A stretch of DNA of 61,729 bases, counting the filler, from Stramenopiles sp. TOSAG23-6 (lineage: Eukaryota): assembly GCA_900128565.1 (NCBI GenBank). It is 2 parts of 2 records of this genome, joined end to end, with 100 filler letters (N's around TTAATTAATTAA, not from the genome) between each part and the next. Parts side by side here need not be neighbours in the genome. Positions count along the whole stretch, not along the records: positions 1 to 30,886 come from LT635962.1; 1 more part is not named here. The stretch is one strand, 5' to 3'. Made by a program: the position numbers and the translations under genes. The notes under the pieces are model-generated. The model searched no databases and was not told where the DNA came from. It saw only the letters and a list, made by a program, of their open reading frames with translations. Shown in pieces: positions 11,385 through 35,182 of the stretch (its first letter is position 1; each line of letters begins with the position of its first letter).

Positions 11385-11495
11385 ATTTGAATTGTAGCAT
11401 TTTTATTTGAAAAAAACAAGATAATTCTACACGGTCTTTGACAAAACTGAAATTCATAACGTGTTTTGTTTTACACACAATTTTCAATTGATTAT

Positions 11496-12893: not shown

Positions 12894-13208
12894 ATCTTAT
12901 GTGTAATGTTTATGTGTGTGTTAGCTCTTGGAATGATGGTATTACAATATAAAAGCCTTCTGTAATTTGACTGTTTGGTGGAGAGAGTGATATAGATAAA
13001 GCTACAAGAGATGAAATCTTTCTTGTCACTAATGTAACCGAAAACAAAAAAACACGAAATCGGCCTAAATAATTGAAGGATTCGATAAAATTCCGTCGAT
13101 CTTGGCCAACTCTTTTTTTGAGAAGGATCATTGTTCGTCTAAAAATCGTATCTAGTCAAGGAAAATAGATACTAATACTATTCAAAAAAAAGATACTGTA
13201 AAAAGGCG

Positions 13209-16200
13209 ATGATTCGCAGTGCAATTGAAGCACTATTATCATCGGCCGGTGGCGATAATGACCACAGTGTAATTTTGAGCGTTGAAAAGTCTATGATTGA
13301 TTTGTGCCGCTCTCATCCTAAAGACATGCTTTCGGTTTGTTGTGAGACTCTACGTGATACAAGTGATGCAACGAAGCGTGGCGCAGTACTTCGAATTGTA
13401 GAGACTACAATGAGAGAAGTCGTATCGGAAACTGACGAGGAAGGTATCCGCCAACAAACATGTGAGCTTGTCTCACTGATCATAAAAGACGTTACTCAAA
13501 GACCTACTTCAGAGGCTGGTTCTGTTCTTGTTGGCGCAGCATCTTGTTTTCCAGATGTGGTAATTAACGCACTCTTGGAGCGTTGTGAAATCCCCGGAGA
13601 GGCACCACCGATCAAAATTGTAGACTTGTTAGGAAACGTAGCAGCCACAAATCCAGTAGTATTTGAAACCCGAGCAAAGGAAGTTTTTTCTGTGCTTCTA
13701 CCAACGCTAGGAACTATCAAATCAAAACAAATGCGAATTTCATTTTCACAAGCCTTTGGACAGTTTTGTGACGCGATAAATGTTGCAAAAGAGCAGTCAA
13801 AAGCACCCCCCAAAAACTTCAATTCTGAAGCATTGACTGCATATCAAGTAATATATGGTAATTGGCTTGGCGATTCTGCTGGGGATGTCCGAGGTGCCGC
13901 AGCTGAAGCTCTTGGTCGATGTTCACTGATTTTGAACCTGGAGACGAAGAGGCAGCAACTAGGTGATACCGTGCGCAAACTAATACAATTACTTAATCGA
14001 GCACGGGGGAAAACATCAGAGAGATTAATGATTCTTAGAGGGCTTTCATCTCACTTGAGTAATATTTCTGCTATGGGGTGTGAAGAAGCAGAAAACATTT
14101 TATTAGGTGAGATTAATATTATTTTAGAGGCACTTTATCCTCTTGCGTCCAATCGACCAACAGATGAGAATGACAGCACAATACTACGAAGAGATCTTTT
14201 AGTATATGCTGAAGTATTGCGATGTGTAGAAGCCCTTGCTTCTGGATCTGGTAAACTACTTGGTTGTGTGCAAAAGTTTTTGATTAATGTATTTGGGGCT
14301 TTTATTTTACCTGGGGCGAAACAATTTCCTCCAGAATCTGCTATAATTGCAACATGCACCTTACTAGCTCATCTCGTAAACTCTTTGGGGAAAACTACAG
14401 CAAATACAGAAAATATCGAAAATCTTCTATCGAGTGTCCGGTCTCTCACAGAAATAGGGGATATAAACAATGAGCGCGAACATCGAAGAATTTTGTCTCC
14501 TGCAATTAGACTTGCGGTCGCACAGCTCATTTCTGCATGTGGAACTGCTGGATTTCTACAAACTCAAGATGGTAACCTTAGGATGGGTGCACGACCTGCA
14601 ATTTTATTTATTCTACGACAATGTTCTATCGCGCCAATAGATGAAGAGAATAATCTTGTATCTTTTCGAAAGGGCAAAGGAGGGCGAGGATGTGTCTCAT
14701 TATCCCAGCTTCGAAATGCATGTGATAATGTGCTACTACATGTTTCCAGATGTACGCCTTGTCCAACTGTAACTATTCTTTTACCAGCTGTGATATCTCC
14801 GGAATATCAACATGCATTAGCGATTATTGTACATTGTCTAGCTACGCTTCACTCTAATGGTATAATTGATTACAACGATCCTTTATTACAAATACCTAAA
14901 AAATCACAATTAATGGCAAGATTAATGGTCGCAGCAAATGCTCCATTAACTGGTAGATGTCGTAAAGGACCTCTGCGAGATACAGCGTTGAAGTTACTAC
15001 AGCTCCTGTCTCATCGACTGAGTCCTGAGATTAAAGCAAACGCGCTGATAATTCCAAGCTGCTCACCAAAGGGAGAAAAAGAAAATAACTTCAATGTAAG
15101 TCAACCTGGGTGGCGTCAAACATTATTTGCAAGATTTAGAGGAACTCTTGCAGCTGCTGAAAAAGTAAACCCACAATGGGTAACTGCCTTGGGTCTTGCT
15201 CTCGCCGAACAATTATCAATGTACTCATCAGTTTGTAAAAGTAAAGACAAAGAAGGCAATTATATCGTCACTGAAAATTCTGTTCTTAAATCAGCAGGTA
15301 TTCGATACCTCGGAGCTGTTGCTGCGGCAAGCGGTTTACCAGAACTTGTCACTTCTATTATCGAATCAGGTCTTAACTCAATCGATCATTCAGATATGAA
15401 CCAAGTTCGCGCTTGTGCAGTTGGTATTGGAATGTCGGCGTCGGGTTCGCGTGCTCATTTAGACACTGCAATTGGTTTACTTGGAAAAAAACTTCGTATA
15501 GCTGCTGGTTCAGGAAAAAAAGTAGGAGGGTGGTTCGGATTTGGAGGGAAAGTGGAAGGAAAAGATGATGCGCTCCGGGGTTCGATTGCTATTTGTTATG
15601 GACAGGTTGCGTTTGCTGCACCTAAATGTATTAGATCGAATTTATTAAATCCGACGTCTCCGCTGCTACAACTAACAGATAAAACGACAACAACATGTCC
15701 AAAACTTCGTGAGAAATTCTTACGCTCATTATCTGATATTGCCGCTGCTGCTGGAACTCGAGGTAATAACGAATGTTTCGAATTGTCTCAACGAGAACAA
15801 TTTATTGATCTAACTTTAAGTTATATGCAATGTGATAAAAATGATAAAAAATCAGCAGATACATTGATTGATATTCGTGACGTAGGGGCTATGGCATGTC
15901 TAGAAATGATGAAATTACATCCAATGTTAAGTGGAGAAATTCATATACAAATTCTATCTCAAATGATCCATCTTTGGAATTTGCCATGGAAAAAGATATC
16001 CGAGGAAAATGAACCTCCCAGAGGCGATATTGTTGATATTATTGAAATGACACCAGATCCACAAACGAAACTATTTGCTGAAGGCAGTAGCTATAATAAA
16101 CTCTTACAGGCTTTAGTCACTCAAATTCCACAAGAATTATTTCACGAAAAACTCTCTGTGCAAATAAAAAGTGAAAATCGAAGATGCCGATTGCGTTCTA

Positions 16201-19025
16201 TGAATGCACTCTATGAAGTGTTACTCAAAACAGCGAGACAGTATAATGTGGGAATTAAATCGATAAAGTTTGCGATTAGCAAATGGGCAGCAACACTGAT
16301 ACCTCGATGCTTCGACTCCATGCCAGCTGTGCGTGCACAGGCAGCGAGAGCATGTTGTGCTCTACTTGATATTGCTAAACATGAGGCAAATATTACTTTT
16401 GATATACCAAAAGAAGATAAAGTCTCTCGTAGAGAAATGATTTGGGTAAACCTTGTGCTATCCGAAAGTACCTCAGATAATTGTGCCGGGGTCCAGCTAA
16501 TTGCTGCTGCATTTGCAGATGTCATGCCTTTCATTGCCCCATCATCAAATACGAGTGGAATGATCTATGACGGTTCCGAATGTACTGATGGTAAAGAACA
16601 CGTAACTCCGAAGGAAATAAATCCTCTACTATGTATGCTTCAAAGTCTGCTTGCCGTCGGTATCCGCGACTGTAAAAGTTGTGTAAGAGTTAGTTCAGCT
16701 GTTGCTCTTCTTGTAATATTAACAAAGGTTGTTAAAAGTGAAGCTATCAGCGGGGCAATTCCCTCCCTAGTACAAGATATTCTAAAAATACTTGGTGAAG
16801 TGTACGAAGAACTTGAAGAAGATGAAACAACAATACTGGACGTTGATTGGTATAAACCAAATGATGGTGCTTCAAATGATTGTAATGGACAACAGCCAAG
16901 ACTTTCTTGGGGGCGCTCAAGAATTAAAGCTGAAAGAGCAAAGTCACAAAAGAAAAGTTCTTACAATTATTCGCCTACTGAAAAGTCACACATTCAGCAG
17001 ACAAAAGCCCTCTTGCACCACTCTATATTGACTCTCGCAAATTCATATTTTGAAGTAGTGGTAAACCAAATTTTGAGATCTGTACTCCCACTCCGAGTGG
17101 AAGCTACATATTCTCTAGCAGTATTAGTTGGAGCACCAATTGAGATTGGGTTTAGCGTTGTTCGAGGCGAAACAATTGCTGAAAAATGGGCAGAGGAAAC
17201 TGGCGACACGAACCCTGCAAAGTTAAGTGTACCTACAAAAATGCGAACGCAAATGGTCCAAAAACTAATTGAACATTTAACAGATATTCTAAATAATGTA
17301 AAACCAATTTCGGAAACCAGTGAACCAAGTTCAGATAGTTCATCTTCAGGCAAAAACACTTTAGCTGGAATGGATTCAGTCAAGAAAATTAGTATTGAAG
17401 GAGCCCAACATTTGGTACACGCTACATACAATGCATTTTCTGCCGTCTATTTACTACCGAGTGGGATTCTTAATCCCTTTACTAGTAAGCATTTAGTTCC
17501 TCTAGTCGCCACTCTTTTATTGGGTATCTCGTGTATTCATTGTGCATGTTCACCACCAAAGACTAAAAATATTACAGATAGTCAAGAAGAGGAAAAACAA
17601 AAAGATACCAGATCACATCTTTTATTTGCCGCATGTGCGTCATTACGATGTCTCATTGACTGTGCAAAAGCAGGTTCCATGCGCACAGCTCTTTTGAATT
17701 CAGACATATTTGAAAAATTATGTTCCATTGAAGAGTACGACGAAGCTATCGCAAAAATCACAGAAATTCTATGCCTGAACGCGCCGTCTGTCTTGCGAAA
17801 CAGAGATAAAATTGCCACCGAGCAAATCGTGTCAACAAAGGCAACCAATACTATTGCACGCTCGATTTCTAAAGTGATGTCAATTTTTGTTACTCGGAGT
17901 AATAATGGACAAAGAATAGCTGCCACTGTTTGCTGCGCTGCTGCGGTTCCACACATTGGAAGAGGGCTAAAAGAACCGGAACTCGAGATGCTATTAACAC
18001 GTGTAACTGATGATGAACATTTAGCTCGCAAACACGCAATACGGGGTATTGGTGCATCTTTTAAGACGATCGAAGTATTGAATACTGAATGCACTTATCC
18101 TAAAATCATCAAAGCATTGGAAAAATCAGTCAATGATCCTTTTGGTAGTGTGCAATGCGAAGGCTTACTCGCTATTGAGTTCTTAACTAGTATGCTACCA
18201 TTATCGACACTAGAAAAGTATATTTCATCCATTCTGGATTCATGTTGTGAAACATTGACGGTACTTAGTGCAGATACCAGATGTGCTACACTTCAAGTCT
18301 GGGCTGGACTTCTTGCAAAATTTGGTAGCACTAGACCTAGCAAACGTATAATTGTTAATGCAATGAATGTACTTCCAAATGTATTGGCACACCTTCGAGC
18401 TAGACACGCAAAGACAAGACGAGCGGCCTTAAAATGTCTTTCACATTTATTCGTAGTGATGGGAAATGACTTTGATTCAGCTGCCGCAATATTAGTTCGT
18501 TACGGTGGCGAAGACGTAACGCAAGATCTTCGATTTTCCCAAGATCATGGTATTGATGAAACAAAAGGTATCGAAGTATTACAATCTAATTTTGCAACAA
18601 ATGATGATGCCACGAATGATGAAATATCTGATAATCGTAAAGAAGTCTCAGACTTTGATGCTTGTTTGAAAGAAATTATCCCTAAAATAATCCTGCAAAA
18701 TGGTTGTAGTATCCGCGAAGACTTGGTATTAAACATGATAAGCACGTGTAGAAATTTAATGCTTCAAACCGGAAACAAATCTAGGACAACTAATTTTTAC
18801 CATGATCAAGAAAGCGATATTGATGCCGATACTTGGGCCCCAATTGCTGCCAATGCTGCGATGATTGCTGCATCGATTGTCACATTTACCCCAGAGCACA
18901 AAAGAAAGAAAATCCATTCAAATGAAGTTTGTGCTGATATTTCTAAACTTTTGATAAACCATCCATCTGCCCCAGCAAGAAGTCGCGCAGCGCAGGCACT
19001 TGGACTCTTAGGTACATCATCTTAA
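13209..19025 (+). CDS. Maestro HEAT-like repeat protein (MROH1/HEATR7-like), intronless
   Basis: 1938-aa ORF with HEAT repeats (DVRGAAAEALGR, LIPRCFDSMPAVRAQA, RSRAAQALGLL). Confidence 0.65.
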   Translation: MIRSAIEALLSSAGGDNDHSVILSVEKSMIDLCRSHPKDMLSVCCETLRDTSDATKRGAVLRIVETTMREVVSETDEEGIRQQTCELVSLIIKDVTQRPTSEAGSVLVGAASCFPDVVINALLERCEIPGEAPPIKIVDLLGNVAATNPVVFETRAKEVFSVLLPTLGTIKSKQMRISFSQAFGQFCDAINVAKEQSKAPPKNFNSEALTAYQVIYGNWLGDSAGDVRGAAAEALGRCSLILNLETKRQQLGDTVRKLIQLLNRARGKTSERLMILRGLSSHLSNISAMGCEEAENILLGEINIILEALYPLASNRPTDENDSTILRRDLLVYAEVLRCVEALASGSGKLLGCVQKFLINVFGAFILPGAKQFPPESAIIATCTLLAHLVNSLGKTTANTENIENLLSSVRSLTEIGDINNEREHRRILSPAIRLAVAQLISACGTAGFLQTQDGNLRMGARPAILFILRQCSIAPIDEENNLVSFRKGKGGRGCVSLSQLRNACDNVLLHVSRCTPCPTVTILLPAVISPEYQHALAIIVHCLATLHSNGIIDYNDPLLQIPKKSQLMARLMVAANAPLTGRCRKGPLRDTALKLLQLLSHRLSPEIKANALIIPSCSPKGEKENNFNVSQPGWRQTLFARFRGTLAAAEKVNPQWVTALGLALAEQLSMYSSVCKSKDKEGNYIVTENSVLKSAGIRYLGAVAAASGLPELVTSIIESGLNSIDHSDMNQVRACAVGIGMSASGSRAHLDTAIGLLGKKLRIAAGSGKKVGGWFGFGGKVEGKDDALRGSIAICYGQVAFAAPKCIRSNLLNPTSPLLQLTDKTTTTCPKLREKFLRSLSDIAAAAGTRGNNECFELSQREQFIDLTLSYMQCDKNDKKSADTLIDIRDVGAMACLEMMKLHPMLSGEIHIQILSQMIHLWNLPWKKISEENEPPRGDIVDIIEMTPDPQTKLFAEGSSYNKLLQALVTQIPQELFHEKLSVQIKSENRRCRLRSMNALYEVLLKTARQYNVGIKSIKFAISKWAATLIPRCFDSMPAVRAQAARACCALLDIAKHEANITFDIPKEDKVSRREMIWVNLVLSESTSDNCAGVQLIAAAFADVMPFIAPSSNTSGMIYDGSECTDGKEHVTPKEINPLLCMLQSLLAVGIRDCKSCVRVSSAVALLVILTKVVKSEAISGAIPSLVQDILKILGEVYEELEEDETTILDVDWYKPNDGASNDCNGQQPRLSWGRSRIKAERAKSQKKSSYNYSPTEKSHIQQTKALLHHSILTLANSYFEVVVNQILRSVLPLRVEATYSLAVLVGAPIEIGFSVVRGETIAEKWAEETGDTNPAKLSVPTKMRTQMVQKLIEHLTDILNNVKPISETSEPSSDSSSSGKNTLAGMDSVKKISIEGAQHLVHATYNAFSAVYLLPSGILNPFTSKHLVPLVATLLLGISCIHCACSPPKTKNITDSQEEEKQKDTRSHLLFAACASLRCLIDCAKAGSMRTALLNSDIFEKLCSIEEYDEAIAKITEILCLNAPSVLRNRDKIATEQIVSTKATNTIARSISKVMSIFVTRSNNGQRIAATVCCAAAVPHIGRGLKEPELEMLLTRVTDDEHLARKHAIRGIGASFKTIEVLNTECTYPKIIKALEKSVNDPFGSVQCEGLLAIEFLTSMLPLSTLEKYISSILDSCCETLTVLSADTRCATLQVWAGLLAKFGSTRPSKRIIVNAMNVLPNVLAHLRARHAKTRRAALKCLSHLFVVMGNDFDSAAAILVRYGGEDVTQDLRFSQDHGIDETKGIEVLQSNFATNDDATNDEISDNRKEVSDFDACLKEIIPKIILQNGCSIREDLVLNMISTCRNLMLQTGNKSRTTNFYHDQESDIDADTWAPIAANAAMIAASIVTFTPEHKRKKIHSNEVCADISKLLINHPSAPARSRAAQALGLLGTSS

Positions 19026-19268
19026 CCTGTATTATATGTATAAAATACAGCATACGCTTTTATTAAAATTGATAAAATATAAATCATGCCCTTTTTCTAT
19101 TTTTATTTTATTTGAGGAGCTTTGCTTCTTGGACATGTACTTTGCTATTCATTCGTAGTAACAAATTCCAATAATTTACATAGTATTTATTTATAATTTA
19201 TTACATTTTGAATCAAAAGATGATTTCGATTTGTTTCAGTTTAAAATATGTTCAATACTGTCGCAACT

Positions 19269-21270
19269 TCAATCTATATCCTTATTAACGACTTTGTCGT
19301 AGAGCATTGGAAATCGATTCTTTGCATCATACTTTGCTTTTAATCGGTCATATTCAACACCATTAAAATGATTATGTACAAATTTACGTGAATACAAAAC
19401 ATCTGAATAAAAAGTCTTTCCGCCACCGTGTTCTTCAATAAGTGCATCGATTTGTCGATTATGCCAGTATTTTTCTCCCTTGTGAGCAGGGTTTCGGGGA
19501 ACTGAGCCAAATGCAGCAACATCCATCATCAAACCTTTCTGCTTCGGCTCCGCAACACATCGTGGTGGAGGCCATAATGTAGCATCGTCTGCAAGTTCGA
19601 GATGACTTCCAAATGTTGCCGGGCATATATTGTTAAAAAATATGTTTAGAAAAAAAAATCGTTAGGTACATATGAAAAAAAAATTAAATTCGAAATGGGT
19701 AAAAAAATAAAACAAACATATCCAAAAGGGCAACTTAGCATGCCCACCATCCAAAAGCTGTTGTATAAATTTGGAGGTTGTCTTGAGGGGTACACCCATA
19801 TCCTGAATGACAATTTCATCTTGATCCACTGGAAAAATCCATTTAGAAAAAATGTATTGTAAAATTTTTTTTTTTTTTTTTTTTTTTGGTTTAAAAAAAT
19901 CATCAGGTACAAAATTTTCATACAGAAAAAAAAAATTGGAATGAATGATGAAAACGTACATATTTAATATCCAATTCTTCATATATCGTAACTGTAAACT
20001 AAGTGACCATAAAACAGTGGATCGTAATACTCGACGTCCGAGTAACCAACGTACCCAAGGTATTCCCAAACGTATTGTGAAAAAATATTTTTTTTTTTTT
20101 TACGAAAAAAAAAATTGTTAGGTACAAAATTTTCTGCCAAAAAAAAAAAATTCGAAATTCAATTTTGAAAATGTACAAATGGAATTCCTAATGTACCCCA
20201 GAACATATCGGTGTCCCATCGCCAAAGATAATCATATATGCTCATACAGAAAACTCTGCTAGTATCACAAGCCAATATTACATCTAAAAAACGACCATCG
20301 TCAGGTAAGTCCTTTGGAAAAATATTCTAAAACATTTCAAATTCGTTAGGTACAAAATTTGGTACGAAAAAAAATCGAACTTGAAAAAAATAAAACAGAT
20401 AGTGAAAATGTACAATTTTACCAGAGGCATTTTCTTAAGCTTATTAGGGCAATTATTAAAAGCCACTTGGATGACCACACCTTCATTGGCTGATAGTACT
20501 AGTCCTTCAATGTAGTCAACTGATTTGATCTGAGGATTATGAGATTTGATGGTTGTAGAGATATGCGAACACTTTGTTGCGAGTCGACCGAGCTCCTCCA
20601 CTGCATCATTCAATGCCATCCGCCGAACAAAAACTGTCACAAAGGGTGAAATTTTCATTAGTGATAGCTTGACAGAAAGTGCATATCCAAGAGTACCATA
20701 ACTATGCGCGAAGCCAGAGAAAAGATCAGCGTTTTCGCCGTGCCTGTTACACAACAACACGCGTCCATCAGAAAGTAAGACTTCGAATTCAACTACCGTA
20801 TTATGAACGAAGCCATATCGCCAACTGGAACTTTCAATGGCGACACCCGAAAGTGCGCCGCCTACAGTAATGCTGTGAAGTATGAAAGTAGTGAAAGTGT
20901 TTTTAAAATGAATAATAACGTGAACAGTAGTTTGATAGGGGGAAGTTTAGTATTGCTTTTTAATAAACATTTCTTACGTATCCAACTCGGGCACAACCTT
21001 TGGTGCAAATCCCCTTGGCAACAGGAACTCGGTCAACATTTTAAATGGTGTTTTCCCACCTACTGTGACTGTACTCGCTTTGTTGTCAAAGTTGATGATA
21101 CCCACAAAAGCATTTAGATTTAGTTTTCCACCTGGAGTACGCTGGGCAGATTGCGCAAAGATCGTCGAGACATTTCCAGTTTGATCTAACCACATTAATT
21201 GTGTGCTAGCCTGCATCTGTTTCTGCGCTGTGTCTACCGCGAGCATGTAAGTATTCAGACCGAGCTTCAT
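19269..21270 (-). CDS. FAD-linked oxidoreductase, Delta24-sterol reductase (DHCR24)-like, 6 exons
   Basis: Motifs restored by removing 5 introns: VVPELDT|ITVGG, HSYGTLGY, DYLWRWDTDMFW, IVIQDMGVP, PFWI|CP, KYDAKNRFPMLYDKV. Confidence 0.85.
19625..19717 (-). mobile_element. Introner-like GT-AT intron (93 nt)
   Basis: ATAT|GTTTGT...TACCTAAC...ACAATATAT|GC restores PFWICP. Confidence 0.85.
19852..19959 (-). mobile_element. Introner-like GT-AT intron (108 nt, in-frame, no stop)
   Basis: AT|GTACGT...TACCTGAT...CAATACAT|T. Confidence 0.75.
20070..20176 (-). mobile_element. Introner-like GT-GT intron (107 nt)
   Basis: CCATTT|GTACAT...TACCTAAC...CAATACGT|TTG gives GIPF|LGIPW. Confidence 0.8.
20307..20413 (-). 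mobile_element. Introner-like GT-TT intron (107 nt)
   Basis: AAATT|GTACAT...TACCTAAC...CCAAAGGACTT|ACCT. The upstream AG is 5 nt short and would frameshift. Confidence 0.75.
20873..20977 (-). other. Canonical GT-AG intron (105 nt)
   Basis: AC|GTAAGA...TTCACAG|C restores PELDTITVGG. Confidence 0.9.
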
Positions 21271-21637
21271 TGTTTCCTTTATACTGAGTAGTGATTGCAA
21301 AGACTTTTGAACCTCGACTCGAGACGGAGAGTCGAGACACAAAAAAAGATAATCTCCGATACGATACTACGCGTAATAATATTATACACCGGGTAACGAT
21401 TTCAAAGATTTTTTGATATTTTGATATTTTATGAAAATTGAATTTATTTATCTTTTATTATGTACAAAGTTAGTTTGATTTTATAAAATAAAATCAAAAC
21501 TGTGATAAAATTACTTCAATTATATACATATATCACATCGCCATTCATTTGATTGAATTGTACATTATTACAATTGCAAATAATAAAACACTAATTTAAA
21601 AAAATGGATACTCAGTGATTCTTTCGTCCTCCTACAT

Positions 21638-23464
21638 TTATTGTATTTTTTCTTTTTTTATTGCTTCTTCACCTGCTGAAGCTGATGCAGCGTTTTGTTG
21701 CCGGTAAGACATAATCCGATTCGATATTGTTTTTGATAAGGCAGCAATTGTAGAATTTGTATGTTTTTGAAGACTCTGAATCATTTCTGTTGTACCTTGA
21801 ATTTCATCAATTTTTGCCGTGTTAATTAGACTGCTTTGTGTGATGAGCAGCAGTACACCAAGTGCAGTATGTAAAATATGAAGATTATTCTGATGATCCT
21901 TCAACGATTTTACAATTGTAGCAATAGCATCTTCTGTTGCTCCAACCTTTGTTTGATTATCGGGATGTTTATATGTGGTGTTCAACAGTACACCAAGTGC
22001 CTGTGATACAATTTTAGGATTATTTTGATGATCCTTCAACGATTTTACAACTGTAGCAATAGCATATCCTGTTGCTCCAACCTTTGTTTTATTATCAAAA
22101 TGTTTATATGTGATGTTCACCAGTACACCAAGTGCCTGTGCTACAATTGTAGGATTATTTTGATGATCCTTCAACGATTTTACAACTGTAGCAATGGCAC
22201 CGTCTGTTGCTCCAAACTTTGTTTGATTATCAGGATGTTTACATGTGATGTTCTCCAGTACACCAAGTGCCCATTTTACAATTAGAGGATAATTTTGATG
22301 ATCCTTCAACGATTTTACAACCGTAGCAATGGCACCGTCTGTTGCTCCAACCTTTGTTCGATTATCACGATGGTTGATTGTGATGTTCGCCAGTACACCA
22401 AGTGCAAATGTTACAATTTTAGGATTATTTTGATGATCCTTCAACGATTTTGCAATTGTAGCAATGACACCGTCTGTTGCTCCAACCTTTGTTTGATTTT
22501 CACGATGGTTAAATGTAATGGTCGCCAGTACATCAAGTGCCCATGTTACAATTCCAGAATTATTTTGATGATCCTTCAATGTTTTTACAATTGTAGCAAT
22601 TGCATCTTCTGTTGCTCCAACCTTTGTTTGATTATCGGGATGGTGAAATGTGATGTTCCTCAGTACAGCAAGTATATTTGCTACAATAGCAGTATTATGA
22701 TGATTCTTCAACAATGATACAATTGTAGCAATAACATCTTCTGTTGCTCCAACCTTTGTTTGATTATCAGGATGGTGAAATGTGATTTCCGCCAGTACAA
22801 CAAGTGAGTTTATTAAAACGCCATCATCAGAAGCATTTTTCATAAGCTCAATAATTTTTTCAGTATTAATATACACTTTGCAAGCTTCCTCACTCATTAG
22901 TAGTTTCGAAAGTATAAATAGCGATTGTTGAATAACATCATTAATATTGTATGTAAAAAATCCCTGCAAGACATTAAATATTTCAACATTTTCCCTGATA
23001 ACTCTTCTCTTTTCTGGAATCATGACCATGTTCTGCAGTTCCATGAGAATTAAGTCACATGATTTCATTGCTTGGGTTCGTAAATGCGGAGAATGTATTG
23101 GAATGGATTTATGTATCCCTTGATAGCAGTGTCCAGCACGGAGCTGTTGAATGATTGCTTTTACTTCAGCATCTGAGATTTTTTGACAACATTTCATGCA
23201 CAACCAGTAGTTACAAGATTTACACGCGGCCACATGCGTATGCTTATTAATGTGACACTTACACCCGTCACATATGCCGTGTCCATTGGCTTCGAAGTTT
23301 TGCAACTGGTGGCCAAGGTTACACGGACCTGAAACTCTACTTCGTTTCGCACTTGACACGTCAGTTCCACCTGCATGCGGTCGTTTAGCGTTAGCAGCTT
23401 TGATAAACACAAAGTTACTGATTGAAACGAGCAAACATAGAGTAATTAGAGTAACGTTTTTCAT
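21638..23464 (-). CDS. Armadillo-repeat protein with predicted signal peptide, basic NLS-like motif and Cys/His zinc-finger-like domain
   Basis: MKNVTLITLCLLVSISNFVFIKA; KRPHAGGTDVSSAKRSR; CDGC...CKSCNYWLCMKC; ~7 near-identical 43-aa repeats. Confidence 0.75.
   Translation of the reverse strand: MKNVTLITLCLLVSISNFVFIKAANAKRPHAGGTDVSSAKRSRVSGPCNLGHQLQNFEANGHGICDGCKCHINKHTHVAACKSCNYWLCMKCCQKISDAEVKAIIQQLRAGHCYQGIHKSIPIHSPHLRTQAMKSCDLILMELQNMVMIPEKRRVIRENVEIFNVLQGFFTYNINDVIQQSLFILSKLLMSEEACKVYINTEKIIELMKNASDDGVLINSLVVLAEITFHHPDNQTKVGATEDVIATIVSLLKNHHNTAIVANILAVLRNITFHHPDNQTKVGATEDAIATIVKTLKDHQNNSGIVTWALDVLATITFNHRENQTKVGATDGVIATIAKSLKDHQNNPKIVTFALGVLANITINHRDNRTKVGATDGAIATVVKSLKDHQNYPLIVKWALGVLENITCKHPDNQTKFGATDGAIATVVKSLKDHQNNPTIVAQALGVLVNITYKHFDNKTKVGATGYAIATVVKSLKDHQNNPKIVSQALGVLLNTTYKHPDNQTKVGATEDAIATIVKSLKDHQNNLHILHTALGVLLLITQSSLINTAKIDEIQGTTEMIQSLQKHTNSTIAALSKTISNRIMSYRQQNAASASAGEEAIKKEKIQ
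21880..22800 (-). repeat. Tandem ~129-nt coding repeats (ARM units), about 7 copies
   Basis: Recurrent NITxxHPDNQTKVGATxxAIATxVKSLKDHQNN. Confidence 0.9.
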
Positions 23465-23777
23465 TGTAACAAATAGTAGGGTTTGCAATAATTTGAGTTT
23501 TACTTGCGCGCGCACTTCTTGTAAACATTTCTACGTCTCTACGTCTCTACGCTGACTCTGTCAGCTGACCAACAGAAGTTTTTTTACTACACGAAATCAG
23601 GCACTTTGGTACATATATGCGAAATAATAGTAATATAGTCAGTCTATTACGCAACACTCTTCTTTTTGAAGTAGTAGAATCCTACCATCAATTTATTTCA
23701 CAAATCTAGTGTGCTATCAATAAATAGTTTGAAGCCAGAGATTTATCACAGTCTAACATATTATATTGATCAACGAA

Positions 23778-24614
23778 ATGGAACTTTGCAAGTATATTCA
23801 AATTGTTTTATTGTTGTGTATGCATCTACAACTCAACCTTGCCGCTCAAGAGGCTCAAGACAACCGCCTCTTCCATTTCATCTTTCCTCCAAACAACCTC
23901 TGGACAACGAACGAGTTCACCGCACTATCGAATGTGCCAATTACACAACAACAAGCCCAACAAGAGCAAATAAAGAAACAAGCTCAACACAAGCAACAAG
24001 CACAATACGGGCAACAAGCAGAACAAGCACAACAACAACAACAACAACAACAACAGCAACAAAAACTAGTACTACAAATACAACAACAACAACAACTACA
24101 ACTACTACGATAGCGTGCATTTTTTCAAGTAAACCCAATGAAGCTCGGTAATGCTCCATTATATATCAAGAGCAATCCTTTAATTGTCAAAGAAGCAGTT
24201 GAAAGTGATCCCAGTTCAATTCAGTTTGTAGGTGACCAACTTCTCAATGGAAAATTACCCGAAGTTTTAATAAACTACGCGATACAGAAAATGGCCGATT
24301 TGGTAAAACAAAATGGTATGAATCTAAAACGATTTGAATGGTTTTTTTATATTGATGAACATTCTATATTTTGCAAGTATCAGACTATTTTCGAAAACAT
24401 TGCAATGATGGCAATTTGTCAAAATAAAGAAGCAGCGAAATTTCTTCCTTATAACTTCAAACTTAAATTGCCATTTCAAATGTGGCTACGACTCCAAAAT
24501 GATGGTTCATATGAAGAATTTATTAAACAGCGCCAGGATTTGAAACAAGAGAGTGATGAATTGAAGTTGCGAATATCTAAATTTGCTCTTGAGAAGGGAT
24601 ATATTATTAATTGA
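23778..24614 (+). pseudogene. Putative secreted polyQ + DUF4116-like protein interrupted by a single in-frame TAG (24111-24113)
   Basis: ORFs 23766-24113 and 24138-24614 share a frame (QLLR*RAFFQVNPMKLG). Hydrophobic N-terminus; NPLIVKEAVESDPSSIQFV and LVKQNGMNL repeats. Confidence 0.55.
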
Positions 24615-24765
24615 TAAGTTTGTGACTATTACTTGAACATTTTTTATGATGATAAAAAAATATTAAGAAAAAGAAGCATTAAATATAAATTATGCATATT
24701 TTGTGGTTTTATCGGGCCTTTATTGGTTTATTATTATCAAAATAGGAAACAAAACAGATATATTT

Positions 24766-27514
24766 TCAAGCCTGTTCATTCGCTTTGCTTTTTCCAGACG
24801 ATTTTCTTTTTTTCTTTTTCGGTTTTGCTGGAATCATCATTCGCATTCCTCCTTGCGCAGCCAAACGTTCTCTCAATGCAGATTTTCTATCCACAGCCTT
24901 TCTAGCTTCAACATCCTCCGGTGTTTCTTTTATATCAGAATCAGAATCAGAGTCTGGGGGAGGCGGCGGTGGTGATGAACCACGCCTCGCTTTTGGCGAG
25001 TTACCATCTACAGACACGGGACGCGATGGCCTCGGTGGGGGTGATTTTACTGTTGACGGAGTACTACCGCCTTGCATAACTGCTATAGGTTCAATTTCCG
25101 CATTTTCCTCGTTTGCTTTTGAAGAGGGTGAAGGAATACCACTGGTGACATCCGGCCCTTGATATTTGTTTTCATCTGATGACTTTGACACTAGCTTTGA
25201 TGCAGCTTCGATCTCACCAATTGTGGGTGATGCAAAGATACTTAACCTGCCACTATTTACACCTTTCAACGAGACTGTCTTTGACCTCTTTCTACCTTGC
25301 TCTGGGCTTTCCAGAATCTCTTCTGCAACGACAAGTTTAACATAATTTCCAGGAAAAAATCCTTCAGACCCTATTGGTATTCCTTGATCAGTAACAAGAG
25401 CTCCAGTCCACCACTCATTTACCCATGATGTCACTAAAATCATATCACCTAGAGAAAAATTGAGTCCCTGTTCATTTTCTGTTTTAAAGTCATATTGAGC
25501 TACGGCAAGCTTTGTTTCTCCAATCCGCATATCATCAACATTGTCATCCTTTGCAGAAATCTTTGAAGAACCGTTCGATACGTCATTGGTAGCAGTAGAT
25601 GCTTTCTGCTTTGGTGAAGAAGATTTGCTAAATGCATTAGAAACTCTATTGATTGACATTCGTTTTTCGCGCTTTATTTGTGCATTCATTGCTGCCATTG
25701 CTAAAGGATTTGGTTCCCTTTTATTTGCAGATAACCGATTTTTATTATTATCAATTGTAGGTGAATCTTCTTTTACTTCCAGAGGCTTAACTTCATCTGC
25801 TTCAGAGGTAAGACTTTCGTCTGGGTCGCTAACTGAAGTTTTCTCTTGTTTTTCTGGAGGAGGTGGTGGGATCTCATCTGAAAGTTCTTCTTTTAAAGGT
25901 GGTGGTGGGATCTCATCTGAAAGTTCTTCTTTTAAAGGTGGCTGTGAGATCTCATCTGAAAGTTCCTCTTTTAAAGGTGGCGGTGAGATCTCATCTGAAA
26001 TATCATTTTCACTGCATGAAATACTTTTTTCTCTGTCAATCTTTTCTTCATCATTTTCAACAACTTTTTCGACTTCAATTTCACCTTCTTGCTGAACATC
26101 TGAGGAGTCGTCCGAATTATCCTCATATTCATTTCCAGAATTCACATCAGAAACGTTTTCTTTGACTTCAGAAACAATTGGACCAGAATTCACATCAGAA
26201 ACATTTTCTTTGACTTCAGAAACAATTGGACCAGATTCATCATTACGCATACTTTTATGATGACTATTTCGGGGACTCATGCATTGTGAAAAAATATTTT
26301 TTTTTCCCTAAAAATAAATCATTAGTTTTTTTACGAAAAAAAAAAAAATTCAAACATTCAATTTTGAAAACGTACATAGATCCTCGGCGAGCTTCAGGTC
26401 TCCTTTCTTGGTAAAGTTTTTTAATCACTGCTTCTTCAGTTAGTTTGGCTGCAAAAGCTTCCATCAAATGTTTTGAATTTCCACCAAAAGCAGCGAGTAC
26501 GTTTGTCATGGCCAATATTTCAGTACGAATCATTAATGCTTGTTGCATTTGGAGAAAGTATTGTGAAAAAATATTTTTTTTTAGTAAAAAAAATCGNTAN
26601 GTACNGNANTNCCATACGAAAAAAATAAATTTTGAAATTTTGAAAACGTACATATCCACTGCTTTGTTCATTCTCAGGTCTGCTTCTCTATATTCTTCTT
26701 CACAATTTTCGTGCGCTTGCTGTCTTTGTAGAAGTTTATCTTCAGCTAAAGCAGCAACTTCATGACGATTTTTCTTTGCAAAGAATCCTGTTTTCAATGC
26801 TGCTGCACGTGCCTTTCGAGCTTTTCCTGCCGACTTTTCAAGCTTATAGTGGGCAGTTTCCAGATTGTCCATTGCTTCACGTCGCTTTCCAATCGCTCGT
26901 TCAACGTCGCTAATGAGAGCAATCAAGTTCGTCTGAAAACTTTCGACCGGTGCAAGTAATGAGGTTTGCCAAGTGCGTTCGTTATCAATTGAAATGAGTT
27001 GTTTTTGTGCGTCTGATAAACGTGTAAGGTCCTCAATATTGGTATCTACGTCATCTACTATGAACTCTTGGAGGCATTCCGTAACGTTTACAGAACTCGC
27101 ACAATAATCGCGCATATTTTCCAGCATTGCAGATGTCGCTTTAGAAATGGATACAATTTTCTTCGCCATGGCTTTTTTTTCTCGGACAAAGTCATGCTCC
27201 TGTGAAGAGTAAGAAAGAAATATTAGGGTAGAAAGGTGAGTAATGTGTATTTACTGATTGTGAAAGTCTGTATTCAAGAGAGGTTACTAAAATGACTTAC
27301 ATCTTTATCCTTGTATTTTGAATAACTAGACCACATTAAGCCACAACTTTGGATACAGCAATAGTGTAAATATTAATCCTACTGTTGCGAAAAAGAATCC
27401 GTCTCAGAAAAAAGAAGAAATATTCGATGAAACACTTAACGTAGTGTGAGGAGCGATTCTTCTTCGAATCAAATCAAAATCAGCTGAAGCTTCAAGTTTC
27501 TCCTCGAGAGCCAT
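24766..27514 (-). CDS. BAR-like + SH3 domain protein (amphiphysin/Rvs167-like) with Pro-rich tails, 5 exons
   Basis: Helical N-terminus; SH3 (AVAQYDFKTENEQGLNFSLGDMI..WWTG..GFFPGNYV). Exons joined through 2 GT-AG introns and 2 introner introns. Confidence 0.75.
25860..26233 (-). repeat. Coding tandem repeats: 4x39 nt (EELSDEIPPPPLK) and 2x~51 nt (SGPIVSEVKENVSDVN)
   Basis: Direct repeats visible in DNA and protein. Confidence 0.85.
26279..26375 (-). mobile_element. Introner-like GT-AT intron (97 nt)
   Basis: TCTAT|GTACGT...ACTAAT...CAATGCAT|GAGT. Confidence 0.8.
26556..26651 (-). mobile_element. Introner-like GT-TT intron (96 nt, in-frame, contains Ns)
   Basis: GATAT|GTACGT...CAATACTT|TCTC. 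Confidence 0.7.
27200..27300 (-). other. Canonical GT-AG intron (101 nt)
   Basis: GAT|GTAAGT...TTCACAG|GAG. Confidence 0.85.
27326..27440 (-). other. Canonical GT-AG intron (115 nt)
   Basis: AC|GTTAAGT...GCTTAAT..GTCTAG|T joins the MALEEKLE.. exon in frame. Confidence 0.6.
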
Positions 27515-30886: not shown

Positions 30887-30986
30887 NNNNNNNNNNNNNN
30901 NNNNNNNNNNNNNNNNNNNNNNNNNNNNNNTTAATTAATTAANNNNNNNNNNNNNNNNNNNNNNNNNNNNNNNNNNNNNNNNNNNN
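30887..30986. other. Artificial contig-joining spacer (N-TTAATTAATTAA-N, stops in all six frames)
   Basis: Symmetric N runs around TTAATTAATTAA at 30931-30942. Confidence 0.9.
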
Positions 30987-31087
30987 TTGTGAAAAAATAT
31001 TTCAAAAAAAAAACTTAAATTTGTTAGGTACAAAATTTCGTACAAAACAAAATTCGATTTTTTTGTTAAAAAAAAAATAAAACATAC
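30987..31087 (-). mobile_element. Introner-like intron (3' end in gap)
   Basis: AT|GTATGT...TACCTAAC...TTTTCACAA. Confidence 0.8.
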
Positions 31088-34000
31088 ATATTAAATGGAC
31101 ATAACCAAGGCGAGCCTATATGATGGTCGCCTAATGCAGCTGCAACGGATAATGCGGAGCAGGAGTAAAACATATCCACGTATTTTGGAAAAATATTTGA
31201 AAAAAAAAATCATTAGGTACAAAATTTCGTACGAAAAAAAATTCGAAGTTGAAAAAAAATAAAACGTACACTTCCAAATGTTTGTTAATATGATGATGAT
31301 GGAGTCTTTCATACAAGGTTGTCAGATGACTTAAACTCCGAAATAAAGTATGTATTTTGGAAAAATATTTGAAAAAAAAATCGTTAGGTATGAAATTTCG
31401 TATGAAAACAAATTCGATTTTTTTGTTAAAAAAAAAAATAAAAATATTTGAAAAAAAAATCGTTAGGTACAACATTTCGTATGAAAAAAAAATTAAATTA
31501 GAAATTCATATAAAACGTACATTATCTTCATCCCATTCTTTACTTCTATTCAGTGTAATATGTTCAACTATAAAACGAAAACGCCGAAAATCTCTAGTCA
31601 GAATTTCCAAAACTGTTTTACTACATACATTGCGTTTACAATGTTTTTTGGAAAAATATTTCAAAAAAAATCTAAACACAATTGTTAGGTACAAAATTTT
31701 TTTACCAAAAAAAAAAATAAATTTGAAATTGAAAAAAAATAAAACATACATGCTGTTTGCTATTTTGATTGCTACCATCCTTACCATCACAAAATGAATT
31801 AGAATTCTGAGCTTGATGAAGGATTCCATTTGAATTATTTTGTCTACCATTGTCATAATTAAAAAGAGATTTTGGTTCAATTTCTGAACAAACTGAGCTG
31901 ATATTATCATAAGTATTCATACTTAATTTTGCAATCATGACTAACGGAAATTGTAATAATGAATCCGATGTATTTTGGAAAAATATTTCAAAAAAAATCT
32001 AAAACATTTTGTTAGGTACAAAATTTCGTACGAAAAAAAAATGTAGACAAAAAATTGAAAAAAAATAAAACATACATGCTCCAGAATCACTTATATGAGA
32101 ATCTTGTACCATTTCTTCCGGCATAAAAATAACTCGCCAATCCGTTAATAGCAAGGTACCAATTTTTAGTTCGTTAGGAGTAGGGTCAGGACAAGAACCC
32201 AATATCGCAAGAATATGTATTGTGAAAAAATATTTTGTGAAAAAAATCGTTAGGTACGGAATTTCGTACGAAAAAAAAACTTGAATTTGAAATTCATTAT
32301 GAAATTGTACATGAGGAATAACCAGTTCTGGGAGTTCTGTGGCTTTGGGTGGAAGAGAAAGAACTCTAGCCTGGGAAGCACGCTGATCTTTTGATGCATC
32401 AAGTAGTAACTTCACACGGCGTTTTCTGAAAAAGTCATTACGAAATTTTGATGCATACGTATTGCAAAAAAATATTGCAAAACAAAAAAATCGTTAGGTA
32501 CAAAATTTCGTACGAAAAAAATAAATTCGAAATTGAAAAAAAAAACGTACACTGTGTACATATAAAATGATCCCATGCAATGCGAAGCGACATCAACTCA
32601 CCGAAATTAAAAAACGTTTTCATTGCAAATTCTGCAACAGCATTTTGTAATTGAGTCCGTCTCGATGTATTTTGGAAAAATATTTCAAAAAAAAAAAATT
32701 AATTTTTGTTAGGTACAAAATTTCGTACGAAAAAAAATTCGATTTTTTGTTTAAAAAAAAAGATAAAACATACATGCTGCTAAAGATCTTGCACTGAACG
32801 GTTGGCGTGATTCCAACATTCCGCCCTCTCCTTTTTTTAATTCCATCTCTTCAATCGCTTTTACAAATATATTTTGGAAAAATATTTCAAAATTTACTAT
32901 AAAAAAATTTGTTAGGTACAAAATTTTCAAAAAAAAAAAATCAATTTTTTGTTAAAAAAAAAAAATAAAACATACATAATTCAAAACTTCCTGGGGAAAA
33001 AATGGGTTTTTCTCCTTCAGTATTTTTAGTATTTTTAGTATTTTTAGTATTTTTAGTATTTTTAGATTGTTCACTCACCCACTTGCGAAGAACCTTTCGA
33101 GACCATCGAGATAGTTGGGCACCTGAAAGGTTTACAATTGTATTTTCATTACTAGTTGTAGAAAAATGAAAACCACGTTTTGCCGCTGCAGCTACGAAAC
33201 GCCGAGTGACGTCATCAACTGCTTCTAGATTGGATCCAAGTCGAGTTTTTTCCACATTTGCTAAATTTTCAGCTCTTATATCAGCATCTATTTGAGCAAC
33301 TTCTGCTTCTTTTTTTGCTGCATCTAACAAATCAATGTGTATTTTGGAAAAATATTTCAAAAAAAATCTTAAAAAATTGTTAGGTACAAAATTTCCTATG
33401 GAAAAATAAATTCAATTTCAAATTTAAAAAAAAAAAAAAAACATACATTTGTTTTTTCTAGATCCAAACACTTTTCAATATATAATTTATCACTTGCAGA
33501 ATCGTTAGGGTTAGGATTTTGGAGGCTAAAAGGAAGCGCCAATCTACCTTCGCTTCGAATATTTCGTATGAATTGTGGAAAAATATTTCAAAAAAATCTA
33601 AAAACATTTGTTAGGTACAAAATTTCCTATGAAAAAATAAATTCGAAATTGAAAAAAAATAAAACATACATTGATTCGTGAACAATATTTTCACTCGGAG
33701 ATATCGAACAAATGGCCTCAACCAAAATTTCTCCAGTCACATATAATGAAAAGAAATATTTCCAAAAATTGATTTTTTTGTTAGGTACGAAATGTTCTAT
33801 GAAAAACAAACTTAAAATTCATGATAAATAAAAACGAATATAATAAAAACGAATATAATAAAAACGAATAGTATATAAAAACTCAAAAAAAAATCTTTTT
33901 TGTTTTTTTTGTTTTTTTTTGTTTTTTTTTGTTTAGGTACGAACTTTCCTATGAAAAAAAATAATAAATGAAAACATACATGCTTTGAACGTTTCGTCCG

Positions 34001-34792
34001 TTTGCCTAAGGGAAGCCATTCAGAACAGATGGTGCACGCAGATAGTGAACATATACTCATGTATTGTGAAAAAATATTTCAAAAAAAAATTAATTTTTGT
34101 TAGGTACAAAATTTCGTACGAAAACAAATTCAAAATTGAAAAAAAAATAAAACATACATAGCAGCTTTCCCAAGAAATTTTCCAGTGCCAATTATAGATC
34201 GTTTGTGAAAAACTTCGACTTCAATAAAAGAGTGTAACCCTTGAGACAACGGAAATACAAACATCATGTCCCAACTAGGGTTAATACCCCCCTTCTTCTC
34301 ACCCTCAATCTTATGGTCCAGTGTACATGTATTGTGAATTTTTTTTTTATAAAATTTGTTAGGTACAAAATTTCGTACAAAAAAAACAAAAATTTGAAAT
34401 TGATAAAACGTACAGGCTTTTCCGCTACCAACACGTACTTCACAATATGGATTTAATGTTCCAACAGTTCCTTTGGAAGTCAAGTTTCGGGCGCTAGAAA
34501 TTTTTACAACGATAAAAGGACCAAGGTCTTGCTGTTTGTGCCGAAGTGAAGACAACTCAAAGAACTCCTTTAATCCTCCTTGCGATCTATAAAGTCGAAC
34601 TGCAAGAGCTGGACGCTTTCTACACGATGCACGGGAATTAACTATAGGTACTATGTCTTCTACTGTAGGTGTATCTTGACCACCACCTTGATTTATTACA
34701 GTCTTCTTAGAATGAAAGTCACTATCAGACGAAGTTTCAACAGAAGGACAGGCATTTCGTTTTTTTCGTGAAAATGGGTTCCAACTCTTCAT
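31088..34792 (-). CDS. C2-domain + PH/GRAM-like protein (possibly myotubularin-related), at least 14 exons, 3'-truncated
   Basis: C2 (VKISSARNL..LNPYCEVRVG..GGINPSWD..IEVEVFH..FLGKA); GRAM-like (GTLLLTDWRVIF..QFPLVMIAKL). One continuous frame after removing 13 complete introner introns. Confidence 0.7.
31178..31269 (-). mobile_element. Introner-like GT-GT intron (92 nt)
   Basis: GAAGT|GTACGT...AAAATACGT|GGAT; GT duplicated. Confidence 0.8.
31350..31520 (-). mobile_element. Composite introner GT-AT intron (171 nt, two branch modules)
   Basis: AAT|GTACGT...two TACCTAAC...AAAATACAT|ACT. Confidence 0.75.
31641..31749 (-). mobile_element. Introner-like GT-AT intron (109 nt)
   Basis: CAT|GTATGT...CCAAAAAACAT|TGT. 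Confidence 0.8.
31968..32075 (-). mobile_element. Introner-like GT-AT intron (108 nt)
   Basis: GCAT|GTATGT...AAAATACAT|CG. Confidence 0.85.
32215..32310 (-). mobile_element. Introner-like GT-AT intron (96 nt, in-frame)
   Basis: CAT|GTACAA...CAATACAT|ATT. Confidence 0.75.
32457..32550 (-). mobile_element. Introner-like GT-GT intron (94 nt)
   Basis: CAGT|GTACGT...CAATACGT|ATGCA; GT duplicated. Confidence 0.8.
32665..32773 (-). mobile_element. Introner-like GT-AT intron (109 nt)
   Basis: GCAT|GTATGT...AAAATACAT|CG. Confidence 0.85.
32867..32975 (-). mobile_element. Introner-like GT-AT intron (109 nt)
   Basis: TTAT|GTATGT...AAAATATAT|TTG. Confidence 0.85.
33337..33446 (-). mobile_element. Introner-like GT-AC intron (110 nt)
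   Basis: AAT|GTATGT...AAAATACAC|ATTGAT; required by frame. Confidence 0.7.
33568..33669 (-). mobile_element. Introner-like GT-AT intron (102 nt)
   Basis: CAAT|GTATGT...CACAATTCAT|ACGA. Confidence 0.8.
33741..33979 (-). mobile_element. Composite introner GT-AT intron (239 nt, two branch modules, internal 16-nt tandem repeat)
   Basis: CAT|GTATGT...two GTACCTAA...CATTATAT|GTG. Confidence 0.7.
34059..34157 (-). mobile_element. Introner-like GT-AT intron (99 nt)
   Basis: GCTAT|GTATGT...CAATACAT|GAGT. Confidence 0.85.
34327..34413 (-). mobile_element. Introner-like GT-AT intron (87 nt, in-frame)
   Basis: GCCT|GTACGT...CAATACAT|GTACA; interrupts the C2 domain. Confidence 0.75.
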
Positions 34793-35182
34793 ATCACTTT
34801 CTACTACAAACTACAAACTACAACGTAAAGTAAAGTAAAGTAAAGCAAAAAGGTACAATGGTGTTGTGGAAGTTACAGGTGTGAAAATAGTGGTGCATTC
34901 CAAAAATGTTTCGTATGGGATGACCTATACCTACAAGTATATTAGTATCGATAAAGCGCGTGAAATGAAAAAATTCGACCTGAAATCCAAAAAATAGCAA
35001 ATTTGAAAAAGTCGATCCCGGTAATCCATCGGTTAAAAAAACGGAAATTTGAAATTTCTCTTTTTATACCCTTCGGCATTTGCCTAAACGTTTCACATTA
35101 TTCTGGAACATCGAAATCTACGCCGATCAATAGTGATTTATATGTGCACACGATTCAATATCCTGCATAATATACTTTGGTA

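Follow-up and report, generated by a model that had tools for sequence, protein, structure and literature searches.

Two introns without a 3′ AG in Stramenopiles sp. TOSAG23-6 are probably diverged copies of a transposon-like introner family

The DNA analyzed here (61,729 nucleotides in all, called the window below) joins two parts of the draft genome of Stramenopiles sp. TOSAG23-6 (GenBank assembly GCA_900128565.1), the first of them from LT635962.1; it is AT-rich (∼36% GC) and gene-dense, with long open reading frames (ORFs) under the standard code. Our subject is a gene on its minus strand at 19269..21270 and two intron-like segments within that gene, I-a (20307..20413) and I-b (20070..20176), neither of which ends in AG. 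The gene encodes an FAD-linked oxidoreductase (FAD_binding_4/VAO-type, DHCR24-like), as judged from Pfam, homologs, tblastn and the spliced reading frame. Its FAD_binding_4 match is weak and NCBIfam gives only distant FAD-oxidase matches, far under the cut-offs; the 98 homologs (33–65% identical) are mostly bacterial-type proteins of about 450 amino acids, and one bacterial homolog bears the UniRef name Delta(24)-sterol reductase. With the three closest homologs as queries, tblastn maps six exon blocks with matching gaps, and together with the spliced model it places the exons at 21270-20978, 20872-20414, 20306-20177, 20069-19960, 19851-19718 and 19624-19272, with the stop codon at 19271-19269. 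The spliced model is 1479 nt long (493 codons) and stop-free once intron 1 and four copies of a repeat family (I-a, I-b, I-c and I-d) are taken out. Intron 1 (20873..20977, minus strand), as read from the sequence and from junction homology, is an ordinary GT-AG intron (GTAAGA...CACAG) that lies outside the repeat family; its junction reads D-T-I-T-V-G-G, and 98/98 homologs share its I, T, G and G. No same-species transcript-derived protein was found in a protein search with exon 2 (best match 50% identical) or among the five matches to exon 3 in 1.84 billion representative proteins (best 63% identical). A metagenome scan with exon 3 gave 80 loci, which are distant homologs matching in the YLWRWDTD region only (58–81% identity over 16–24 residues).

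I-a is 107 nt long and is assigned to the family by profile search (nhmmer E=2.9e-19), frame and junction homology. On the minus strand the upstream exon ends ..AAATT, the segment runs GTACAT...AAAGGACTT (also given as CCAAAGGACTT), and the next exon resumes with ACCTG. It has a degenerate 3′ core (AAAGGAC) and, at 20345..20352 (minus strand, motif match), a box resembling a branch site, TACCTAAC; TT precedes its 5′ G and TT are also its last two nucleotides. The sequences and minus-strand coordinates that the initial annotation gave for I-a and I-b are correct, as is its remark that I-a passes over an AG five nucleotides upstream, since one AG is present with 5 nt remaining before the 3′ end. 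Both junctions were compared in an alignment of 10 homologs chosen from 102 related proteins, seven of them close. That of I-a reads VKLPDDGRF, is gap-free, and fits V-x-[LV]-P-x-[DN]-GRF in 5/7 close homologs. At the 5′ end of I-a (20401-20413, minus strand) a 12-nt additional piece, GTACATTTTCAC, is followed by a degenerate family start, TATCTGTTTT; it looks as if this end had been duplicated and the outer GT alone had survived, and owing to the 12-nt duplication the 5′ boundary was placed by hand at 20413.

I-b, also 107 nt long and beginning GTACAT (nhmmer E=2.9e-15, frame, junction homology), has the 3′ core ..CACAATAC followed by GT. Here the upstream exon ends ..CCATTT, the segment runs GTACAT...CAATACGT (also given as CACAATACGT), and the downstream exon begins TTGGG, so that TT lies ahead of the 5′ G and GT are the last two nucleotides. 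Its TACCTAAC box, at 20117..20124 (minus strand, motif match), is 48 nt from the 3′ end with no AG between the two, and if I-b is retained a stop follows after seven codons. The junction reads ..GIPF and then LGIPWVRWLLGRR, to which the three closest homologs align gap-free. The initial annotation held that the register beginning with GT yields IPF, as in DHCR24-type proteins, and that a shifted register yields IPC. The residues are as described (Phe with GT first, Cys in the register 2 nt upstream, or -2 register), but the homologs favor a hydrophobic residue only weakly: the junction residue (F-LG) faces L, L, F, G, I, T and L in the seven close homologs and C in none, and in the alignment of 98 sequences just 5 have any residue in this column (L in two, F in two, S in one).

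The two sister copies in the same gene, both on the minus strand and identified by nhmmer and frame, have AT at both flanks. I-c (19852..19959, 108 nt; AT, GTACGT...ATAC, AT) has a variant branch box, TACCTGAT, and the frame stays open if it is retained; homolog similarity (FS..) restarts exactly downstream of it. I-d (19625..19717, 93 nt; AT, GTTTGT...ATAT, AT) has a junction that is ambiguous inside a duplicated ATATG. Its removal gives W-I-C-P, gap-free against the homologs, with C in 95/98 and P in 97/98 of them, and since the retained AT falls within the conserved Ile and Cys codons it belongs to the host gene. Frame and homology together point to removal of these elements at the RNA level, and the form from which both 107-nt segments have been removed is the likeliest mature form of the message.

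I-a and I-b belong to one mobile-element-like family, a point that the initial annotation missed. All four segments in the host gene share the family's core 11-mer. Allowing up to one mismatch, the window has 28 occurrences of it, where 0.94 would be expected and 100 shuffles gave no more than 5. A profile search (nhmmer, E≤1e-3) gives 36 matches in the window, corresponding to 30 complete elements, including two composites that account for two matches each, and four that are cut by Ns or by the window ends; per-copy counts below cover the complete elements (n=30), with boundaries set by coordinates from the profile consensus. The elements are typically ∼90–110 nt long (complete copies 87–241 nt, singles 87–171 nt), with a mean pairwise identity of 0.75 and a maximum of 0.91. 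All 36 matches share the strand of the long ORFs on either side (4 in plus-strand and 32 in minus-strand genes) and, judged by those ORFs, interrupt at least 10 gene stretches; the intron phases are split 10/10/10. An alignment of 26 copies has four conserved blocks, namely a GTAYGTTTT start, ..CGTACGAAATTTTGTACCTAAC in the middle, a variable T-rich stretch, and GAAATATTTTTYCAMAATAC plus two bases, and there are invariant or near-invariant columns within the 3′ motif (..ATATTTTTYCAMAATAC). The TACCTAAC box is exact in 24/30 copies and lies 32–51 nt from the end in single elements, and when the cut is placed before the G, 29/30 copies begin with GT. Strict GT, a branch-like box, a T-tract and sense-only orientation are what would be expected of U2-type spliceosomal introns, and we infer that TACCTAAC is the branch site and that the GT-first register is the one used. 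The sole complete copy that starts with A (ATATGT for GTATGT) is on the plus strand at 57332-57424 with AT on both sides; in the shifted register it would be a plain AT..AC intron.

The position of the 3′ cut was examined through the reading frame, by taking for each complete copy the longest open frame entering the 5′ G and then the 3′ cut class that continues it. Offset class +2 (2 nt past the conserved 3′ motif ending ATAC, and equivalent in this test to -1 or +5) restores the frame in 28/30 copies, where ∼10 would be expected by chance, and because family lengths span all mod-3 classes this result is not an artifact of length. The exceptions are I-c, which prefers class 0 (it is open either way, 68 vs 62 codons), and the composite at 33979-33739, which prefers class 1 and has an uncertain end. 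With this cut 23/30 copies end in AT; of the others, four end in GT (the boundary of one being uncertain), two in TT and one in AC, none ends in AG, and the last base is T in 29/30. To call the acceptor dinucleotide unconstrained, given these counts, is an overstatement. The two other copies cited in support of that idea are real, one at 26556..26651 (ends TT, contains single Ns) and one at 33337..33446 (ends AC), both on the minus strand with AT as the upstream flank and both recognized by nhmmer and frame; in the second an AG 13 nt past the branch A would be bypassed. An AG lies between branch box and end in 9 copies, and using it with the family GT shifts the frame in 7, brings in a stop in 1 and is tolerated in 1. 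These observations suggest that the 3′ site is set by the conserved motif or by distance, rather than by AG. The initial annotation had proposed a cut 2 nt past an AATAY motif irrespective of base identity; its position is borne out by the frame and by the 8 of 9 AGs that are unusable. AATAY itself occurs in 21/30 copies and is absent from I-a (AGGAC).

In most copies the last two nucleotides repeat the two that lie upstream of the GT, which makes a duplicated target the best reading of the variable "acceptor". The two nucleotides before the 5′ G are AT in 23/30 copies, GT in 3, TT in 2, CT in 1 and GA in 1, and the flanking dinucleotides are identical in 23/30 (20 AT/AT, 2 GT/GT and 1 TT/TT, the last being I-a); AT makes up 9.4% of the dinucleotides of the window. 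Six copies have flanks that differ, namely I-b (TT/GT), 26651-26556 (AT/TT), 33446-33337 (AT/AC), 34413-34327 (CT/AT), 52926-52834 (GT/AT) and 54904-54813 (GA/AT). Of the seven copies whose upstream flank is not AT, three repeat that dinucleotide downstream, far more than would be predicted from how often GT and TT occur there. When reconstructed, the empty site is approximately palindromic, YAT and then R (Y at -3 in 23/30, A at -2 in 23/30, T at -1 in 29/30, R at +1 in 21/30). On sequence grounds, flanks of this kind are apparently the mark of a small DNA element that duplicates 2 bp of its target on insertion. The complementarity of the ends (ATGTAT...ATACAT, ∼6–7 nt) is tentatively read as a short terminal inverted repeat; its pairing is not above that of shuffles. 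Where the duplication is perfect, cuts of the GT..NN, (N)G..(N) and NN..AC kinds yield identical mRNA, and "acceptor dinucleotide" becomes a matter of convention; in I-a, with TT on both sides, the registers (GT..TT, TG..CT, TT..AC) are thus indistinguishable even by cDNA. I-b, with TT upstream and GT at its end, is not such a case.

It seems probable that I-a and I-b are diverged members of a family of introners, short non-autonomous elements resembling DNA transposons, that is removed by the major spliceosome and has an AG-free 3′ boundary derived from target duplication. The element would enter coding sequence at an approximately palindromic YAT, R target and duplicate 2 bp, usually AT, and would bring with it a yeast-like 5′ splice site (GTAYGT), the branch-like TACCTAAC, a T-rich tract and the 3′ motif ..ATATTTTTYCAMAATAC. 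The major spliceosome would cut before the G and 2 nt past the 3′ motif, taking out the element and one target copy and so restoring the pre-insertion mRNA exactly. The last two bases of the intron would be whatever had been duplicated, AT in most copies and GT and TT in I-b and I-a, respectively, and AGs closer to the branch box would be skipped. A further proposal, which we offer tentatively and regard as doubtful, is that the U2-type spliceosome of this marine eukaryote sets the 3′ cut of the family by position, 2 nt past ..TTTTYCAMAATAY and 32–51 nt from the TACCTAAC branch, ignoring well-placed AGs and tolerating AT, GT, TT and AC; AG-free selection would then have arisen independently, outside the tunicates, in introns with textbook 5′ and branch sites.

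Several points weigh against the introner interpretation. Among pairs of first and last intron bases, G1-G(-1) and A1-C(-1) are known, and a G...T pair is not known to favor the second splicing step. The duplication is imperfect in 7/30 copies, and AT/AT identity alone proves little, AT being frequent at both flanks. I-a ends in CTT and I-b in CGT, so that neither has a YAY end in the GT-first register. I-a also has a canonical rival, an in-frame 95-nt GT-AG pair (GTAAAA...TTTTAG, 20327..20421, minus strand; open 497-amino-acid model) whose AG lies 20 nt past the branch A; it is disfavored because the Val codon of V-x-L-P would be consumed as its GT. Ns and homopolymer frameshifts occur in this draft assembly. 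Lastly, in three seawater metatranscriptome runs (∼5% of sampled words, contigs placed on 7874-26596) no RNA contig spans any of the four family introns, and each of the 11 joints listed either links different element copies, as a mosaic, or has sides of 20–34 nt; contig depth in these data cannot rank features, and DNA may be present in the RNA libraries.

The same three runs gave 397, 424 and 28 placed contigs. Those in long ORFs are 150–450 nt long with 0–4 differences, the organism being present at low depth, and the contigs listed within the host gene lie at 19317-19473 and 20427-20633. Contigs at 90–99% likeness, mostly other element copies, number 325/397, 360/424 and 15/28. The element-rich bin 19749-20373 has a summed depth of ∼2180 and ∼2052 in two non-polyA ("other") libraries and of 4.8 in the polyA library, where other bins with any depth have ∼0.1–2.8. 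This contrast is a hint, and is in keeping with transcription of the elements followed by their loss from polyadenylated mRNA; the very high depth of element-like sequence in the non-polyA libraries also implies that the family is very abundant in some member of that plankton.

Transposon-derived introns without AG are a rare but already described kind, and the family described here would be a further case. Non-canonical introns of Fritillaria that end in AT or AC (3′AT and 3′AC introns) were reportedly described by Henriet et al. in 2019. In the available sections of a paper on these tunicates (PMC13326754), Fritillaria introns are transposon-derived, take their 3′ end from the duplicated target and keep a U-rich tract; 3′AT is the commonest intron end (44% in F. 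pellucida and 34% in F. borealis), and a YAY triplet is frequent ahead of the 5′ site and nearly always makes up the final three bases. The same sections describe a U2-type spliceosome with altered 3′ recognition, in which divergent U2AF paralogs recognize such ends. Judged against that part of the paper, our family is like the 3′AT class in its duplicated target as 3′ end, in AT as the commonest end, in its U-rich tract, in its marine habitat and in YAY, which in the GT-first register forms the upstream triplet in 20/30 copies and the last three bases in 24/30 (3/30 and 24/30 in the -2 register). It is unlike what those sections describe in starting with GT in 29/30 copies, where the major Fritillaria classes start with AG (AG/AC, AG/AT), in its strong TACCTAAC box, and in a 2-nt AT duplication where Fritillaria has TAC; the CGT and CTT ends of I-b and I-a also depart from the Fritillaria YAY ends. 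The Fritillaria literature may already include a GT/AT class that has this motif. The gene content of the host (a giant PAN/TRP/EF-hand gene, no animal matches in protein searches) does not point clearly to a tunicate.

Other introner systems share some of these features. Classical introners (Micromonas, Aureococcus) are described in part of PMC11282704 as short non-autonomous DNA elements that carry one splice site and obtain the other from target duplication. The family here has in common with them, so far as the sections at hand go, sense orientation, a lack of phase bias and aquatic hosts (PMC11282704, PMC12130899), and differs from them in that, in those same sections, classical introners end in canonical AG (PMC11282704). 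In Amoebophrya sp. A25 and A120, according to the accessible part of PMC7789003, repeated introns of ∼120 nt have variable terminal dinucleotides and ambiguous borders. These too are repeated introns in a marine protist with direct repeats at the boundaries and inverted repeats at the ends; as that part of the paper has it, however, the repeats are 3–5 nt, the inverted repeats are 8–20 nt and hairpin-forming, there is no common 5′ GT, and GC is ∼54–58% in the cited genes (PMC7789003), whereas our family has a 2-nt repeat, weak termini, strict GT and a window GC of ∼36%.

It is unlikely, in our estimate, that the elements are instead removed by a non-spliceosomal, structure-guided RNA excision resembling that of euglenids, in which ATGTAT...ATACAT pairing would join the ends and an unspecified activity would cut at fixed positions. 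Such a process would account for the small influence of base identity at the cut. The nonconventional introns of euglenids and hemistasiid diplonemids are, in the portions of PMC11282704 and PMC12621601 available, non-GT-AG and have pairable ends and duplication-like boundary repeats, and direct repeats at the family boundaries have parallels in euglenids and Amoebophrya (PMC11282704 and PMC7789003, as far as those portions extend). Minimum free energy folds of two consensus-like copies do pair (C)AUGUAU with AUACAU(G), and in a 7-pair terminal helix 81.9% of the cells are able to pair. Nevertheless, RNAalifold gives no consensus structure in the family, pairing and covariation are no better than in shuffles (255/500 and 358/500), single-fold z-scores are only -0.4 to -1.85, and the termini of I-a and I-b do not form the ATGTAT/ATACAT helix in the same manner. 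The end complementarity is equally explained by a transposon terminal inverted repeat. In addition, the T-tract, strict GT and branch-like box of the family are features that euglenid nonconventional introns lack in the part of PMC11282704 available; taken together, PMC11282704 and PMC12621601 give euglenid and diplonemid introns no conserved GT, branch motif or U-tract, and make the diplonemid ends C/G-rich.

Less probable still is precise excision at the DNA level, as with the internal eliminated sequences (IESs) of ciliates, such that the assembly would be germline-like and a transposase would leave one copy of the 2-bp repeat. A 2-bp direct repeat does flank each element, and one copy of it, no more and no less, has to stay; the elements have inverted termini, a palindromic target and no 3′ AG, and ciliate IESs share this logic with TA repeats (Mesodinium preprint, in the part available). 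But the element boundaries are AT and not TA, and all 36 matches are in the sense orientation, when DNA excision should not depend on the strand of transcription. Conservation of GT, branch box and T-tract also argues against it, as do the long ORFs open under the standard code, in which TGA and TAA both end genes, and the abundance of element sequence in RNA-library contigs, where DNA carry-over is possible.

U12-type introns have the 5′ motif RTATCCTT and a branch box TCCTTAAC at 8–21 nt from the 3′ end, and their 3′ site is distance-dependent and can have any of several dinucleotides. A minor-spliceosome-like intron of mostly AT...AC form, read in a shifted register and with its 3′ site set by distance, is a very improbable account of the family. 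Its appeal lies in the -2 register, where 23/30 copies have AT at the 5′ end and 21/30 have AC at the 3′ end (counted from the listed 3′ cores), and in GTATGTTT, which shares 6/8 positions with RTATCCTT; Physarum, moreover, is said in the sections of PMC11282704 at hand to have an expanded U12 system in which borders are atypical and inverted repeats occur. Beyond these possible AT..AC termini in one register the likeness fails, since the family 5′ end is GTAYGTTTT without the CC of the U12 motif, the branch-like box lies 32–51 nt from the end rather than 8–21 nt, and GT (29/30) is better conserved than the upstream AT (23/30). In the -2 register I-b would become a TT..AC intron with a Cys found in no close homolog. 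An Rfam search of the whole window gave no match, and so none to U11, U12 or U6atac snRNA, which says little for 62 kb.

Least probable of all are ordinary causes (use of canonical sites, a decaying pseudogene or assembly errors), for in spite of the in-frame GTAAAA...TTTTAG of I-a and the Ns and frameshifts of the assembly, I-b has no AG past its branch box and meets its stop if retained, nothing but the exact removals gives the 493-codon frame and its conserved junctions, the same cut rule applies in 28/30 copies and many genes, and the canonical reading of I-a destroys the conserved Val.

If RNA data confirm the junctions that the introner interpretation predicts, the family would form a natural series on the choice of 3′ sites in the absence of AG, with a constant 5′ site and branch box, last bases that vary and, in some copies, bypassed AGs; work on a similar question is under way in Fritillaria. 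Within that series, the six copies with imperfect duplication would be a direct test of the cut register. Standard gene finders take only GT/GC-AG and AT-AC introns and would split or truncate genes that bear these elements, of which there are at least 34 interruptions in the window, and introner surveys that rely on annotated canonical introns would overlook such families. One 2025 survey, according to the sections available, set aside families whose splice sites were unfamiliar and had no support from transcripts (PMC12130899), and a GT..AT family would be missed in this way. No description of a GT..AT introner family was found in the open-access literature searched, and a literature search for the branch-box string gave primer matches only.

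The family is densest in a C2-domain gene region on the minus strand (30987..34413), where the profile search gives 16 matches in ∼3.4 kb between exons of ∼60–390 nt; 12 complete copies lie within 31178-34413. The stretches 30987-35000 and 56000-61700 together hold 17 complete copies. This gene also holds the composite or nested elements at 31520-31350 (171 nt) and 33979-33739 (241 nt). Three minus-strand copies (19852-19959, 34327-34413 and 52834-52926) have a length that is a multiple of three and no in-frame stop; their retention would add ∼29–36 residues, and one of them lies within a 1528-codon ORF. A scan of viral contigs with a core 16-mer gave 28 loci, in 18 of which the profile fits the seeded stretch alone and in 10 of which it fits nothing; as the element profile is unsupported beyond the seeded stretch, these are chance matches.

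Three element copies lie in a giant minus-strand gene at ∼36060-56080 (∼6900 codons), which has weak Pfam matches only, to two PAN domains, a TRP-channel-like stretch and, upstream of that stretch at ∼38070-38250, EF-hands; the latter fall at the overlap of the two 3′-most ORFs. This content looks more protist-like. At A-runs of 6–7 bases (∼38170, 41170, 45270 and 49590, minus strand) adjacent ORFs of the giant gene overlap; nothing intron-like lies at these places, and the overlaps look like homopolymer indel errors of the draft assembly. Elsewhere there are single Ns and two 44-N gaps (7846-7873, 26597-26611, 30887-30986, 61011-61022). In a small plus-strand gene at 23779-24614, a long run of CAA/CAG codons (poly-Gln) occupies 23980-24100, and the frame apparently shifts at a T-run near 24120. 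A TBC-domain ORF has no protein match at E≤1e-10, a TPH-domain ORF on the minus strand (11499-12896) is CFAP53-like (Atlas), and a HEAT-repeat ORF matches one EukProt protein at 44% identity.

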